Assembly: GCA_021812345.1 (NCBI GenBank)
Contig: JAKANP010000005.1
Coordinates: forward strand, 1 to 56,359
Source of the DNA: a bacterium
Lineage (GTDB): Bacteria > Patescibacteriota > Minisyncoccia > UBA6257 > JAGOQP01
Direction: 5' to 3'
DNA: 56,359 nucleotides
The notes beneath the pieces were generated by a model. It had not been told where the DNA came from. It searched no databases and worked only from the letters and a program-made list of their open reading frames with translations. Of this stretch, positions 3,349 to 8,117 are shown one piece after another (position 1 is the first letter of the stretch; each line of letters opens with the position of its first letter). The position numbers and the translations under genes were made by a program.

Positions 3349-3660
3349 TCAGTCAATTATTTTAAATCGACGTATTTCCTTATGCGCCGTCTCCATGTCA
3401 TCCAGCACTTTTTGGTAGATCGTTTTGGTCTTTTCTGATTTCGGGTTCTCCTCGGCAAATATGATATCGTCATCGTCTACAAAACCGGCTAGTGAGATAT
3501 AAGCACCAGCCAGAAGTCGAATACGTTCCTTGATCGCCTGTTTGATTTTGGTTTTAGGTTCCGGAAGCGAGGATAGCGGATTCATTGATCCGCGCTGATG
3601 TGGCAATCGTACATTTTTTGCGTCCCGGAGGACGGCTTCAATGTCCTCGTCCATAGGCAA
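3349..3660 (-). CDS. Hypothetical protein
   Basis: 103-aa ORF with natural composition, convergent with the permease. Confidence 0.6.
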   Translation of the reverse strand: MPMDEDIEAVLRDAKNVRLPHQRGSMNPLSSLPEPKTKIKQAIKERIRLLAGAYISLAGFVDDDDIIFAEENPKSEKTKTIYQKVLDDMETAHKEIRRFKIID

Positions 3661-4132
3661 GCAAGAACATACGCTTGCCCTCGGGACAAGTCCAGCGGTC
3701 AGTTTTATTTTCTTACCGGGTTGATAATAAAATCGGAAGCCCTTTGTTTATAAGGCATTTCGGCAGTTTATTTTCTTGGGAGTCATATTTGCTTAACTTA
3801 AGCAAATCGTTTTACGCTCTCAATTTTGGTCAACGTGCTGGGTCGGGGTCGCAAATGGTTCAACGGTCGGCTTCAGGTACAAAGATTGCCCCAAGGGCAA
3901 ACACGTGACAGAAATTGGGGCGTTTATTTGGGAGCCGATCAGGTCTGGAATAATCCGGATTTTTCTGATAAAATTCCAGTTGTAAAAGGTGGGTTCCATG
4001 TCTTTAGGCTAAAACGGTTGAAAAGTCTGGAATTATGCCCGCCTCCGGGAGGACGAGTTGTAAAAGGTCTTTAATCTCTCGGATATTTCGGAGAATTGAG
4101 TTCCAATTCAATTCTCCGTAGGGCACGGTTGG

Positions 4133-4438
4133 ATGATTATGAGTATGGAAAAAATCAAAGATTTAAAAGATAAATTTTCCGAAGAGTTGTGCCATGAAGG
4201 AAAATATTCTAATTGGTTGGAAATAAACGACGCCAAAGAATTGAAAGATAAAATTGAAAGTAAATTTCAAGGCGTTGAGGTTGATGTTGATTTGGAAATG
4301 CTTACCATAAAAACCGTCGACGGAAGAATGTTAAAAATTCATCGTTGGAAAAAAATTCCTTATGCTCCGGACGGTCAACGTGTTGTTTCTTATCATAGCA
4401 TTGAAGACGAGATAGAAAGATTTATAAAAGAAGAATAA
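4133..4438 (+). CDS. Hypothetical protein
   Basis: 101-aa charged ORF, non-overlapping. Confidence 0.65.
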   Translation: MIMSMEKIKDLKDKFSEELCHEGKYSNWLEINDAKELKDKIESKFQGVEVDVDLEMLTIKTVDGRMLKIHRWKKIPYAPDGQRVVSYHSIEDEIERFIKEE

Positions 4439-4477
4439 AATATATTATAATTTTATTAGTCAATTTGAGTAAATAAT

Positions 4478-4564
4478 GGAGAGGTGACTGAGTGGTCAAA
4501 GGTGCCTGACTCGAAATCAGGTGTGCGGGAAACTGCACCGTGGGTTCGAATCCCACCCTCTCCG
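4478..4564 (+). tRNA. tRNA-Ser(CGA)
   Basis: GGAGAGG/CCTCTCC acceptor, anticodon arm CCTGA-CT-CGA-AA-TCAGG, long variable arm, GGTTCGAATCC T-arm, G73. Confidence 0.95.
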
Positions 4565-4609
4565 CAATAAAACAAAAACTTCCGAAATGGAAGTTTTGTT
4601 TTATTGCGG
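4562..4609 (+). terminator. Long hairpin directly after tRNA-Ser
   Basis: CCGCAATAAAACAAAAACTTCC-GAAAT-GGAAGTTTTGTTTTATTGCGG. Confidence 0.6.
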
Positions 4610-4690
4610 TGTCTGTTTGAAAATATACGAACGGAACTGATGGGGGCTAACGATAACGGGCGTAACTCGCTTTGAATCGGGACGGAAAGG
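4606..4690 (+). repeat. Left arm of a perfect 85-bp inverted repeat
   Basis: GCGGTGTCTG...GACGGAAAGG is the exact reverse complement of 6036-6120. Confidence 0.95.
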
Positions 4691-4771
4691 CAAACTGCCA
4701 AAGAACCCGTCAAAAATGTCGGCTCGGACTTTATGGCTAAAAGCGGATTTTTATTGAAAAAGATAAATAAT

Positions 4772-4821
4772 TTTGATATCATAGAATTGAAGTTAATCTC
4801 TATACAAATAATGATATCAAA
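4772..4821. promoter_or_regulatory. Putative operator for the downstream HTH protein
   Basis: TTTGATATCAT (4772-4782) and ATGATATCAAA (4811-4821) form an inverted pair just upstream of the ATG at 4833. Confidence 0.45.
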
Positions 4822-4832
4822 GTATTGAAACT

Positions 4833-5030
4833 ATGGCAACAGTTGGCGAGAACATAAAAAGGGTACGCAATAAGCTCGGCTTGACCCAAGACGATTTAGT
4901 GAGAAAGTCTGGCGTAAAGCACACTACGCTCACCAAGATTGAGAGTGATGTTGTAATTAAGCCAAGTGTGCAAACGGTTGCAAATATCGCCAAGGCATTA
5001 GGCGTGCCAATGGAAGATTTATTAAAATAA
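4833..5030 (+). CDS. XRE/Cro-C1 helix-turn-helix regulator
   Basis: GENIKRVRNKLGLTQDDL...TLTKIE...PSVQTVANIAKALGVPMEDLL. Confidence 0.92.
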   Translation: MATVGENIKRVRNKLGLTQDDLVRKSGVKHTTLTKIESDVVIKPSVQTVANIAKALGVPMEDLLK

Positions 5031-5042
5031 TTTTAATAAAAT

Positions 5043-5492
5043 ATGGATAGTAAAAATTGGATTGGTGTTGGTATTGTAGTTGTCGTTTTAGTCGTAGGTG
5101 CCTATCTTGTTGGTCAAAGCTCAAACAATAAGTCACCAGTCGTTACTACTCCCACACCGATAAATAATACAACTACAGAGTCTGCGACAAATCCATATCC
5201 GACAGTTCAAACTCCAACACCTCAACCGTCATATACCGCTCCTAGTTATTATACGCCTATGACTTTTTCGACTGCTGTTGAAGCTCAGAGAAGTAGTTAT
5301 GTTAATGGTTGCACATCTTCGGGTGGAATGTGGGGTAAATGCAACTGCGCCTTTGACTATTTAATAAGTAATTATGGTCTTGTTTGGTTAATAAACGAAA
5401 ATGCTTACGTTAATGTTAATGGTGTAGCTTCTACCGAACTCCGTTCGGCGTCGTTAGATGCATATAAATACTGTTCGGTTTATAGCAATTAA
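5043..5492 (+). CDS. Membrane-anchored protein with a Pro/Thr linker and a Cys-containing C-terminal domain
   Basis: N-terminal TM helix, PT-rich stalk, YVNGC...CNCAFDY...C. Confidence 0.75.
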   Translation: MDSKNWIGVGIVVVVLVVGAYLVGQSSNNKSPVVTTPTPINNTTTESATNPYPTVQTPTPQPSYTAPSYYTPMTFSTAVEAQRSSYVNGCTSSGGMWGKCNCAFDYLISNYGLVWLINENAYVNVNGVASTELRSASLDAYKYCSVYSN

Positions 5493-5507
5493 CTCAAACA
5501 AACGTAC

Positions 5508-6029
5508 ATGAATAAAGAGGAACTCTCGGAGCTCATATTGTCCAATCCAAATGAAGCGTGGAGAAAAGTTCAAACTGGGGAAATTGATATTTCTCATGTG
5601 AATTTTAACGCTTTAAGGGCAAGGGCGAAGAATCAATTTCATATGACGGATCAACAAATCGAAGCAGTCGAATCTACTTACTGGGGTTCTTATTTAGTAG
5701 AGAGAAACATATCGGAAATGGTTTCTTCTATGGAAAAGGCACTTGGCAACACAGATATAGTTGACGATATGTTAGGTCGTTTAACTTTCGGAGATAAAAT
5801 CTCACTAATGAACGATAGATATAACAAAGGAGGACAACTTAAACCATTCATAAGTATGGCTTGGAAAGTTAATCAGTTAAGAAATGATATGGCACATGGT
5901 CGGTTTGGTAATCTCAAATACAACGGCATTGATTTATCCGATAGAAAAGGTCAATTTAAGTTCTTGATTGATTTAGTAACCGCCTTTATGGAATCGGCTA
6001 ACAACATTAAAACCCAAAATAAAAAATGA
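5508..6029 (+). CDS. Putative HEPN-domain protein (MtlR-like)
   Basis: LTFGDKI followed by the RxxxxH motif RNDMAH in a predicted helical protein. Confidence 0.6.
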   Translation: MNKEELSELILSNPNEAWRKVQTGEIDISHVNFNALRARAKNQFHMTDQQIEAVESTYWGSYLVERNISEMVSSMEKALGNTDIVDDMLGRLTFGDKISLMNDRYNKGGQLKPFISMAWKVNQLRNDMAHGRFGNLKYNGIDLSDRKGQFKFLIDLVTAFMESANNIKTQNKK

Positions 6030-6035
6030 AATCGT

Positions 6036-6120
6036 CCTTTCCGTCCCGATTCAAAGCGAGTTACGCCCGTTATCGTTAGCCCCCATCAGTTCCGTTCGTA
6101 TATTTTCAAACAGACACCGC
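6036..6120 (-). repeat. Right arm of the perfect 85-bp inverted repeat
   Basis: CCTTTCCGTC...CAGACACCGC. Confidence 0.95.
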
Positions 6121-6148
6121 CTTCGCTCGCCGAAGCGAGCTACGGCGG
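6117..6148. repeat. REP-like palindrome
   Basis: CCGCCTTCGCTCGCCGAAGCGAGCTACGGCGG; related to 48945-48973 and 52130-52160. Confidence 0.7.
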
Positions 6149-6186
6149 ACGCAGTCCGCAAGTAGTTCGCGAAGGAGAGAATAATT

Positions 6187-6423
6187 ATGTATACAGTTTA
6201 TATTTTAAAGTGTGATGATGGCGATCTATATACTGGTTGTACTGAAGACATTGATAATAGGTTAAACCGGCATAGTAGTGGACATGTTCCGGCTACTGCC
6301 GGGAGATTACCAGTTAAACTTATTGCTTATACAGTTTTTGAAAATAAATACAAAGCATTTGAATTTGAAAGATATTTAAAATCTGGTTCTGGTCGAGCAT
6401 TTATTAAAAAACATTTTTTATAG
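6187..6423 (+). CDS. Small stand-alone GIY-YIG nuclease
   Basis: VYILKC...YTGCT...RLNRH...FERYLKSGSGR. Confidence 0.92.
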   Translation: MYTVYILKCDDGDLYTGCTEDIDNRLNRHSSGHVPATAGRLPVKLIAYTVFENKYKAFEFERYLKSGSGRAFIKKHFL

Positions 6424-6481
6424 TGAGCGACGTGAGATTTTTACCCTCTCCGCAATAAAATAGAACCACAGCAAAAATTTT

Positions 6482-6841
6482 ATGAATTCAAAACAATCAA
6501 TCATCAAATCCAAGAAAAATATATCCACAACAAAGAAAAAAATCTCCGGAGGAGTGGCGCATGATTTACCCTCCGATTTAAAAAAATCTTTAGCTTCGGA
6601 TGCAAAAGCATTATCTGCGTGGGAAAATATCACGCCGCTTGCAAGAAATGAATGGATTTGCTGGACTATCTCTGTCCAAAAAATTGAAACAAGAAACGAA
6701 CATATCAAAAGAGTAATAAAAGAACTCAAAGAAGGCATGCGCCGGCCTTGTTGCTGGCCCGGATGTCCTCATCGCAGACCGAAAGCGGCAAAGTGGTTTA
6801 AATATTTGCCTGACGAATCCAATCGTAAAATAAAAAAATAA
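6482..6841 (+). CDS. YdeI/OmpD-associated family protein
   Basis: LPSDLKKSL...WENITPLARNEWICW...RPCCWPGC. Confidence 0.8.
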   Translation: MNSKQSIIKSKKNISTTKKKISGGVAHDLPSDLKKSLASDAKALSAWENITPLARNEWICWTISVQKIETRNEHIKRVIKELKEGMRRPCCWPGCPHRRPKAAKWFKYLPDESNRKIKK

Positions 6842-6911
6842 AGAACATCGCAATAAAAAATATTATCTGCGGTGTTTTTTTATCATTAATTTTATCTTAT
6901 AATCATAATAT

Positions 6912-8117
6912 ATGATTCAAAACAGCAATCAGCCCAAAAATCATGATGTTTTTTATGTGGGCTTATTAAGTTTTTTTGGAGGAATCGGACAGGATATTTT
7001 TGTACCGGTCTTGCCTCTCTATCTAACTCTGGTTTTGGGATTTGATAAAACTTTTGTTGGAACTACAGAAGGGCTCGTTTCCGCAAGTGCCGCCATATTT
7101 GCGGTTGTCGGAGGTTATTTTTCGGATAAGTGGAAAAAACAAAAATCTCTTATTTTTTCCGGATATTTACTTTCCATGATTTCCAGGTCATTGTTGGCTG
7201 TAATTACTTCAGGGTTGGGGGTAGTCGGTCTGCGCTTGGGGGATGGAATCGGTAAGGGAGTGAAAGATCCGCCCAAAGATGTTTTGGTTGCGGGAGATTC
7301 TAAAAAAACAAGAGGAAGAAGTTTTGGCATTGTCCGTATGTTGGACACGCTTGGTTCTGTTGTTGGGCCGTTAATTCTTTTTTTACTACTCTATTTTTTT
7401 AAAGACAACCCCCATGTTTATCATTATGTTTTGATTTTTTCTGCCGTTCCGCTGATTGCGACTTTGTACATTACTGCAGCCAAACTTAAAGATTATTCCT
7501 ATGTTCGGCCGAATCAGGAATTGGAGCACTCAAATAACAAGCTTTCCGGTAAACTTCCAAAATCTTTCTTTTTGTTTTTGGTGATATCTTTAGTTTTTAC
7601 TTTAGGGAACTCATCGGACGCTTTTTTGATTTTGAGAGCTCAAGGAGTTGGATTTTCCATAATATTGATTCCTATAGTTATAGCTTTGTTTAATTTGGTA
7701 TATGCCGGAGTATCGGTTCCGTTTGGAATTCTTTCGGATAAAATCGGAAGGGCTCCAACTCTTCTTATCGGTTGGGCGGTCTATGTCTTGACTTATTTTG
7801 GATTCGCTTATGTGCCTCATCCGGCGATGATTTGGGTTCTGTATGCTTTATACGGAGTATATTTTGGAGCAACGTGGGGAGTGGCGAAGGCATTTTTAGC
7901 TGATATTGTCGGTCAAGAATTTAGAGGGAGGGCATTCGGGATTTATGGAACCACCATCGGCGTGGCGACGTTTTTTGCCAGTTTAATTGCCGGTTTTTTG
8001 TGGGATAAGTTCGGAGCTCAAGCGCCATTTTATTTTGGCGCCGGGATGGCGGCTTTGGCGGCGCTACTTTTGGTTTCTTTTTCAAAAAAATTAAAATCGG
8101 TTCAACAGGAAATATAA
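6912..8117 (+). CDS. MFS transporter
   Basis: About 12 TM segments, GYFSDKW and GILSDKIGR motif-A copies. Confidence 0.9.
   Translation: MIQNSNQPKNHDVFYVGLLSFFGGIGQDIFVPVLPLYLTLVLGFDKTFVGTTEGLVSASAAIFAVVGGYFSDKWKKQKSLIFSGYLLSMISRSLLAVITSGLGVVGLRLGDGIGKGVKDPPKDVLVAGDSKKTRGRSFGIVRMLDTLGSVVGPLILFLLLYFFKDNPHVYHYVLIFSAVPLIATLYITAAKLKDYSYVRPNQELEHSNNKLSGKLPKSFFLFLVISLVFTLGNSSDAFLILRAQGVGFSIILIPIVIALFNLVYAGVSVPFGILSDKIGRAPTLLIGWAVYVLTYFGFAYVPHPAMIWVLYALYGVYFGATWGVAKAFLADIVGQEFRGRAFGIYGTTIGVATFFASLIAGFLWDKFGAQAPFYFGAGMAALAALLLVSFSKKLKSVQQEI

Follow-up and report, generated by a model that had tools for sequence, protein, structure and literature searches.

How did three genes come to lie between two exact mirror-image arms in a bacterial genome, with no enzyme for moving DNA encoded among them? 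The question is raised by a segment of the assembly GCA_021812345.1 (Patescibacteriota; Minisyncoccia; UBA6257; JAGOQP01), located in contig JAKANP010000005.1, whose 56,359 nucleotides were analysed as a whole and are called the window below. In this segment, positions 4606-4690 and 6036-6120 are exact reverse complements, and between them are encoded a helix-turn-helix (HTH) regulator and two further proteins, just behind the 3' end of a tRNA-Ser(CGA) gene. Our analysis makes it probable that the segment is the cargo module of an element whose large serine recombinase (LSR) targets tRNA 3' ends, and that this module is without a recombinase of its own. We observe here the identity of the arms, the architecture of a family of similar elements, the right junction with the tRNA flank, and an empty site in a congener.

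An exact inverted repeat behind tRNA-Ser(CGA)

The first-pass annotation of the window, made from the letters alone, had reported a perfect inverted repeat of 85 bp around three genes with no transposase or recombinase. Both statements are borne out: the arms are 100% complementary over 85 nt and 1345 nt apart in a self-comparison, and the open reading frames (ORFs) together with a domain search show no transposase or recombinase among the three proteins encoded between them. The second-best inverted pair within 3500-7500 has only 25 nt and 76% identity. Throughout the genome, with 27 contigs and 725,195 bases, the 85-mer is confined to its two window sites, apart from one chance match of 14 nt. 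Rfam, searched in E-value mode over 3500-7500, returns the tRNA only (58.7 bits) and no family that matches the arms, and the arm folded alone is no better than its shuffles (z -1.7). The sole direct repeat at the segment ends is the 4-nt CCGC, found at 4562-4565 and at 6117-6120, and the earlier statement that no target-site duplication flanks the arms thus holds.

Short-read assemblers have difficulty with inverted repeats that exceed the word size, and many related contigs end at such arms, which is why an assembly artefact was considered, as it had been at first pass. Contigs built with 31-mers from four sequencing runs of one study contain all four arm boundaries independently. These contigs stop at 4606, 4690, 6036 and 6120 because the repeat exceeds the word size, and the orientation of the interior is unreadable from them; since the boundaries recur in contigs of the four runs, the repeat is no quirk of the present assembly. 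The same architecture is also found in a single-contig genome (G009, described below) and in dozens of independent assemblies, and an artefact is therefore extremely improbable.

Arms shared with the 3' ends of recombinase genes

Relatives of the arm were sought by a DNA search of 61 related genomes, followed by BLAST on the fetched regions. The outer 25-37 nt are 94-96% identical to arms at two places in one of them (G013:C23 and G013:C1), arm-like sequence with 80-88% identity is present in the congener G002, and G009 shares the inner end of the arm together with the HTH gene (75% over 366 nt, 4666-5031). The alignment of these arms has two conserved boundaries, one at the outer ~25-27 nt and an inner one just beyond a stop codon. 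Inside the arms, two conserved types of flank are distinguished, namely 'L', which leads to the HTH promoter, and 'R', which is common to the G009, G013 and G002 arms and to 25 metagenome arms. The 614-aa ORF of G013:C1 and the 554-aa ORF of G009 each have the Resolvase, Recombinase and Zn_ribbon_recom domains and continue into such an arm at a W/RC junction; a Trp codon immediately precedes the arm, from which the final ~30 residues are translated. In the window arm the same frame is open for 22 codons from RCLFENIRTEL and stops at the corresponding position. Part of the G013:C1 arm is masked by a short stretch of N (L021 ~2400-2460), and the last residues of the 614-aa ORF and the middle of that arm are unreadable.

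The outer pattern of 25 nt is found exactly in more than 120 metagenome stretches, and some of these arms lie outside any ORF, which means that the DNA site is conserved as well as the peptide. Among 69 typed metagenome arms, 40 have the Trp codon directly before the arm and the remainder abut other DNA; in viral contigs the pattern has 0 matches. Behind the same arm type the cargo differs: G013:C1 has a restriction-modification system there, G009 and G013:C23 have membrane proteins, and further contigs have other genes. It had been proposed to look whether the arm elsewhere brackets other cargo or sits beside a recombinase, and both situations are seen in other genomes. The arms match the 3' ends of LSR genes rather than the end of an insertion sequence (IS).

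The geometry of the ends also fits that of serine integrase sites. Counted from the shared core, the T-arm motif follows after 10 nt in the antisense tRNA and after 15 nt in the arm, the same spacing is shown by G009, and an automatic offset score gives +5 as the best motif offset in 11 of 17 family loci. For the integrase of Listeria phage A118, with half-sites of 25 bp, the distance of the zinc-ribbon motif from the centre is 5 bp shorter in attB than in attP (PMC3783163). Judged by its sequence, the arm end fits a P-type half-site and the tRNA end a B-type half-site. The outer 25 nt of both arms, with the CCGC core that they have in common with the tRNA end, are what is predicted for the ends of an LSR element.

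To obtain an overall view of the family, the LSR of G009 was compared with 600 candidate stretches from species-representative genomes; 488 of them code for relatives, and the best 80, mostly Patescibacteria lineages by record title, were analysed by self-comparison for repeats and by tRNA calling. On the whole, the LSR gene lies within inverted repeats of 40-159 nt (median 96), spaced by 1370-1673 nt, in 62 of the 80 loci; 35 of these 62 repeats are perfect and 51 are at least 97% identical. The 3' arm of the LSR gene ends at the Trp codon, and an antisense tRNA 3' end is located no more than 12 nt from this arm end in 34 of the 53 loci with room for it, the targets being tRNA-Gln (10), Ser (10), Asn (7), Leu (3), and Arg, His, Gly and Ala (1 each). 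Where at least 3 kb of upstream sequence is present, 27 of 35 loci have a second repeat pair around 0.7-8.5 kb of cargo, directly adjoining the upstream arm and having a few bases in common with it. All 29 cargo repeat pairs have arms of 36-334 nt, 25 of them being at least 97% identical, and the earlier remark that the arms are longer than the terminal repeats of typical IS is supported for the family as well.

In one relative, G009, two tandem elements stand behind tRNA-Ser(GGA): a pseudo-LSR module, an HTH cassette homologous to that of the window, an intact LSR, and a 4.7-kb cassette whose perfect arms of 292 nt enclose genes for an HTH protein, for a restriction-modification pair and for a 139-aa protein bearing R-x4-H. 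The four repeat-bracketed modules abut each other (L017 3977-10001, L031 1-5800), and a further recombinase stub follows the last arm; according to the ORF reading, the methylase of the cassette is fused to an S24-peptidase-like N-terminus. The layout of the window cargo, with near-perfect repeats that start at the core beside a tRNA 3' end, is as in the family loci and in G009. What is absent is a repeat-bracketed LSR module between tRNA and cargo; at its place, between the tRNA and the left arm, only a 40-nt hairpin (4566-4605) is found. The segment is therefore classed as a recombinase-less member of an LSR element family which is widespread in Patescibacteria and apparently undescribed. 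The features of the locus are collected in Table 1.

Table 1. Features around tRNA-Ser(CGA), in window positions
Feature	Positions	Strand	Basis and remarks
tRNA-Ser(CGA), integration target	4478..4565	+	ARAGORN; Rfam tRNA 58.7 bits; 3' end would give B-type half-site and CCGC core
Palindromic hairpin of 40 nt (A-tract, stem, T-tract)	4566..4605	.	Inverted pairs I6, I15; terminator-like on both strands
Left arm	4606..4690	+	Outer ~25 nt fit P-type LSR half-site; 22 LSR-tail codons and stop; ends 15 nt past the stop
L-type inner flank	4691..4832	+	Promoter scan: promoter-like site 4754-4782 (TG-extended -10); two TGATATCA boxes
XRE-type HTH regulator, 65 aa	4833..5030	+	Pfam HTH_3, E 1.9e-14
149-aa protein, variable cargo	5043..5492	+	N-terminal hydrophobic segment, Thr/Pro-rich linker, Cys-containing C-terminal part
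173-aa all-helical HEPN-like protein (suggestive), variable cargo	5508..6029	+	R125-x4-H130; model pLDDT 89.6
Right arm	6036..6120	-	Exact reverse complement of left arm; R-type inner flank on its inside
Native tRNA-Ser downstream sequence with GC-rich hairpins, B' side of right junction	6117..6180	+	98% to G010; fold z -4.3
GIY-YIG protein, 78 aa, single-domain	6187..6423	+	Pfam GIY-YIG, E 5.6e-14; 66 nt from right arm
Direct copy of tRNA-Ser 3' end and downstream bases	6443..6465	+	Direct repeat D3, 21/23 matching

The right junction and a syntenic locus bear on what was inserted and where. From the CCGC of the right arm onward, 45 nt match the DNA immediately behind tRNA-Ser(GGA) of another genome (G010) with 98% identity; the right junction therefore joins the element arm to the native downstream DNA of the tRNA. 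In the congener G002, the syntenic locus has the same upstream gene, tRNA-Ser(CGA), the major facilitator superfamily transporter and the genes that follow, and contains neither the cassette nor the GIY-YIG gene nor the OmdA gene that stand behind the tRNA in the window. This locus is the empty state of the site.

These observations can be brought together as follows. In complete members the crossover would take place inside the LSR gene, just after the conserved Trp codon and ~30 codons before the stop, and the element would hold a second, inverted copy of the attachment region. A circle with two such inverted copies would integrate through one of them at a tRNA 3' end, so that recombinase arc and cargo arc would each come to lie between the split copy and the intact spare copy. 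The arms of the window would be 'P' arms, made up of a half-site of ~25 nt next to CCGC followed by the LSR tail codons and the stop. The unit 4566-6120, hairpin and cassette together, would have entered through LSR recombination, parting tRNA-Ser(CGA) from the sequence that natively follows it, and its LSR module was presumably lost, or was never there. Having no LSR of its own, the unit needs a cognate LSR in trans for any further excision, flipping or exchange. In essence this supports the idea, put forward at first pass, of a non-autonomous cargo unit mobilised in trans: the arms are those of recombination sites and no recombinase is present.

Several points weigh against this explanation. 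At the protein level the similarity between the arm and the tail of the G009 LSR is weak when taken alone (E 0.3), and it is the DNA identity to the G013 arms, together with the shared junction, that carries the case. The assembled genome offers no cognate LSR, and nowhere in it do Resolvase or Recombinase domains score above their cut-offs. One contig (C16:1-459, L029) does open inside an LSR ORF (C16:1-414) and runs into another tRNA-Ser in antisense, with 120 residues that match the C-terminal end of a 537-aa LSR of three domains at 95% identity (E 4e-69). This LSR belongs to another subfamily, in which the tRNA codes for the tail; its identity to the LSRs of G009 and G013 is no more than 20-24%, and it is probably not the cognate enzyme; the 5' part of its gene and any partner arm are not found in the assembly. 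The origin of the hairpin is ambiguous too, for a recombinase module that has collapsed, a piece of the element and the tRNA's own terminator are all conceivable. It matches a terminator on the + and - strands at 4575-4597 and folds at -27.9 kcal/mol (z -9.0); like hairpins adjoin arms in at least five metagenome contigs (L113, L120, L145, L151 and L158), and a near-identical one is present in G002 without an arm. In addition, the best 80 loci are the closest matches to one LSR and not a random sample, and the collapse of repeats in short-read assemblies may partly inflate the count of perfect arms. Finally, a circular form, excision and inversion have not been observed at the window locus.

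Passenger genes between terminal inverted repeats, without a transposase, are also the layout of mobile insertion cassettes. The segment might accordingly be a cassette similar to miniature inverted-repeat transposable elements (MITEs), with terminal inverted repeats of IS type and moved by a DDE transposase encoded elsewhere. With such cassettes and MITEs it shares the non-autonomous state, the passenger genes between inverted ends and an enzyme acting in trans. The ends are here, however, LSR attachment arms, whose homology is to LSR gene 3' ends. They lie against the 3' end of a tRNA, with which they have the core in common, and on the right the native downstream flank of the tRNA follows; the segment is single-copy in the genome with no target-site duplication, and the arms of the family, at 85-334 nt, are far longer than IS ends. 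A DDE-moved cassette is thus very improbable. An integron cassette was also considered and dropped, as there is neither an attC-like single imperfect palindrome for each gene nor a tyrosine integrase.

Among known serine integrases, those of A118/LI, Bxb1 and phiC31 are alike in having three domains, half-sites of ~25 bp, a motif offset of +5 and only a short duplicated core. The family differs from them by the crossover within the frame of the recombinase, the inverted second copy, and the modules in near-perfect repeats of 40-334 nt. In the literature searched we found no spare inverted attachment copy or repeat-bracketed modules for phage-type LSRs, and likewise no description of the present family, of a mirrored spare site, of an in-frame site or of repeat-bracketed modules, supplements lying outside the search. 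The ssrA islands of Dehalococcoides, in the available text of PMC3146451, have a serine recombinase of ~540 aa (DsiB, CcrB-like) on the reverse strand beside a tRNA-like 3' end. They are alike in standing in tandem with variable cargo, some without an integration module, as the tRNA-Ser of the window likewise seems to carry three tandem modules. They differ in their 20-bp direct repeats of the ssrA end, their much larger size and their six-gene integration module, and the term 'inverted repeat' is not mentioned for them in the text available (PMC3146451).

Orientation of the cassette and identity of the arms

Since the first reading of the locus had also raised the possibility of an invertible segment, we consider here whether the cassette is an active switch, flipped by an LSR in trans so that its reading relative to the tRNA-Ser promoter and the flanking genes is altered. 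Half-sites at the outer ends of inverted arms are indeed the geometry of an inversion substrate. A repeat-flanked segment with crossover sites at its outer ends and a serine recombinase gene adjacent to it is known from the Hin, Gin and Cin systems and from the C segment of phage P1 with its long inverted repeats; Hin, Gin and Cin are small serine invertases which act with an enhancer and Fis and switch alternative gene ends. The enzyme of the present family is, unlike these, an LSR that also integrates at tRNA genes, and the window is without a recombinase.

The metagenome contigs give some indication of both orientations. Eight of them are readable in this respect, the HTH end being beside the recombinase stub in six (L116, L120, L152, L157, L162 and L177) and the reverse being seen in two (L165 and L166), and the polarity of the cassette is thus not fixed across the family. 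L166 and L152 have recombinase modules that are 90.6% identical and the same 137-nt arm. L165 and L166 hold other cargo, however, and insertion in either orientation explains them equally well. For the window itself, a contig of 325 nt from one of the four runs (X4, depth 6) joins the outer right flank through the arm to the HTH side; this joint spans the 85-nt repeat in a 31-mer graph and has 9 mismatches, and may be a path artefact or come from another strain. This joint and a 76-nt skip, each seen in a single contig, were given no weight. Several findings speak against inversion: between the tRNA and the arm stands the hairpin, which scores as terminator-like in either direction; the genes of the cassette have a promoter of their own; the assembly contains no cognate LSR; and no recombinase gene is adjacent to the segment or inside it. 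According to the available text of PMC3783163, LSRs without a directionality factor recombine attP with attB only, which also argues against inversion. A flipped recombinase module would show the tRNA at its upstream arm, and this is found in 0 of the 62 repeat-bracketed LSR loci. Inversion as such is plausible, yet on balance we regard a currently active invertible switch as unlikely.

Another likeness concerns the topology of the proposed element. In the yeast 2-micron plasmid, the tyrosine recombinase Flp acts at FRT sites within a pair of 599-bp inverted repeats, and its recombination serves copy-number amplification in a plasmid that does not integrate. If the element circularises, it would resemble this plasmid in having a recombinase arc and a cargo arc split by long perfect repeats that bear the targets. 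Besides the differences in recombinase class and in integration, no replication gene is seen in the window segment.

The perfect identity of the arms had been attributed to recent origin or to ongoing homogenisation, and of these two the second is favoured by the pattern across the family. Near-perfect identity within arm pairs is found in diverse lineages and the arms differ between elements, which points to continuing homogenisation rather than a recent origin in each case. Site-specific crossover at the outer ends cannot homogenise the arms. Their identity would be kept by gene conversion, or by template switching with the arms close together, ~40 nt apart in a circle of the window unit.

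A further possibility, which we judge unlikely and offer tentatively, is that the mirrored arms form a unit for cassette exchange and inversion in which each state rewrites the C-terminal tail of the LSR, giving a built-in directionality switch, and that the cassette of the window is still functional. With the gene against the tRNA, the antisense strand of the tRNA would code for the tail; with the gene against a cassette, or in the circular element, the arm would supply the conserved RC...IRT... tail. Such a change of tail would replace a separate directionality factor. As the cargo lies between inverted sites, the recombinase could then flip or swap it and not delete it, and the window cassette would be awaiting a passing LSR.

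Cassette genes and neighbouring insertions

Returning to the cargo module of a tRNA-targeting LSR element as the explanation preferred here, we describe its genes and its neighbours. Two TGATATCA boxes stand before the HTH gene, the first (4775-4782) overlapping the -10 hexamer of the promoter and the second (4813-4820) just downstream; the same pair is found upstream of the homologous HTH gene in G009 (L017 5807-5867). From their sequence and placement, the boxes may be a putative operator, which suggests autoregulation by the HTH protein. HTH homologues stand beside arms in 24 of 80 arm-bearing metagenome loci, with up to 94% identity, and also in G009 and G013, and the gene is therefore a backbone gene and not variable cargo. 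A 1562-nt contig from run X2 of the same study is ~90% identical over 4661-5031, covering the inner arm, the promoter and the HTH gene, and then diverges. The same community thus also contains a related cassette whose cargo is different.

The two genes behind the regulator are more difficult to assign. The 149-aa protein has no family in Pfam, NCBIfam or PADLOC and no homologue in the 80 metagenome loci; PADLOC has no match for the 173-aa and the GIY-YIG proteins either. The 173-aa protein is found in 2 of 401 genomes of the class, the window genome included, and it has 9 database relatives; R125 and H130 of its R125-x4-H130 are invariant in 10 of 10 homologues. Among the top 15 VIA structural neighbours of its model (Z 5.9-7.2), 10 (rows 2-5, 7 and 10-14, Z 6.1-7.2) are HEPN proteins by title or as known members, including a HEPN toxin and Csm6, and these Z values are below the level safe for helical bundles. 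Foldseek against the PDB gives nothing at E<=0.001, its best HEPN match having E 0.9, and Pfam HEPN_RiboL-PSP matches the protein with E 0.05, under its cut-off. The predicted structure and the motif, which is of the R-x4-6-H kind conserved in the HEPN superfamily with its four-helix up-down fold, are thus suggestive of a HEPN-like protein, and a toxin or defence role for such cargo under an HTH regulator is a reasonable guess only.

The other genome with this protein is G316, in which the homologue (L234 1193-2007) has 32% identity, with no inverted repeat and no tRNA nearby. It follows a small membrane protein of 96 aa, between the gene of a 166-aa protein and aspS (named from the ORF); the 96-aa protein has no similarity to the 149-aa protein of the window (E 0.99).

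Beyond the right arm, the small GIY-YIG gene requires separate consideration, as the first pass had proposed its nuclease, with a single-stranded fold-back of the arms, as the mobilising agent. Its nearness to the arm is in favour of this, and so is the precedent of the Ssn family, small GIY-YIG proteins with one domain whose substrate for cutting is single-stranded DNA that forms hairpins (PMC11893778). The published Ssn-related motif (PMC11893778, as given in the text available) has, however, 0 matches in the window and 4 in the genome, and the GC-rich hairpins at 6121-6180 differ in kind from Ssn-related motifs. The gene also has its own bracket at 6443-6465, within which an exact 15-mer of the tRNA end, at 4558, recurs at 6446; the observed count was reached in 0 of 100 shuffles. 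Gene and cassette moreover occur apart: homologues of the GIY-YIG gene stand behind tRNA-Ser in G058 and G052 without arms, the HTH cassettes of G009 and G013 are without the GIY-YIG gene, and a homologue is present in only 3 of 80 arm-bearing metagenome loci. The arm alone, as given above, does not fold better than its shuffles, and the arms belong to an LSR, which acts on double-stranded sites. Mobilisation by the GIY-YIG nuclease is therefore highly improbable. We take 6121-6465, with GC-rich hairpins, the GIY-YIG gene and the copy of the tRNA end, as a module of its own, and see no link to the cassette except the shared hot spot.

Other sequences at the same site are as follows. G002 carries two gene-less GC-rich modules of ~170 nt, each ending in a copy of the tRNA 3' end (L018 5888-6290). 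The OmdA/YdeI-family gene of the window (6482-6841) is missing from the syntenic locus of G002, and behind the gene, at 6846-6858, the tRNA end with downstream bases recurs a third time in degenerate form. Judged by these copies in the sequence, the 3' end of tRNA-Ser seems to carry three tandem insertions.

The bacteria of the candidate phyla radiation (CPR), or Patescibacteria, have tiny genomes with few recognised mobile elements. In these genomes the family appears to be a main route by which accessory and defence-type genes are gained at tRNA genes, the cargo seen so far including restriction-modification systems, HEPN-like proteins and membrane proteins. For serine integrases it is unusual to have the site inside the recombinase gene, a mirrored spare copy of it, and long perfect repeats around every module, which raises the question of how the repeats stay identical and what the spare site serves. 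The family also explains a practical nuisance, namely that many CPR contigs end exactly at such arms, and as integration tools its LSRs may be attractive, being compact, directed at tRNA genes and provided with defined sites. As for the copy in the window, it means that cargo modules persist, and perhaps move, without their recombinase.

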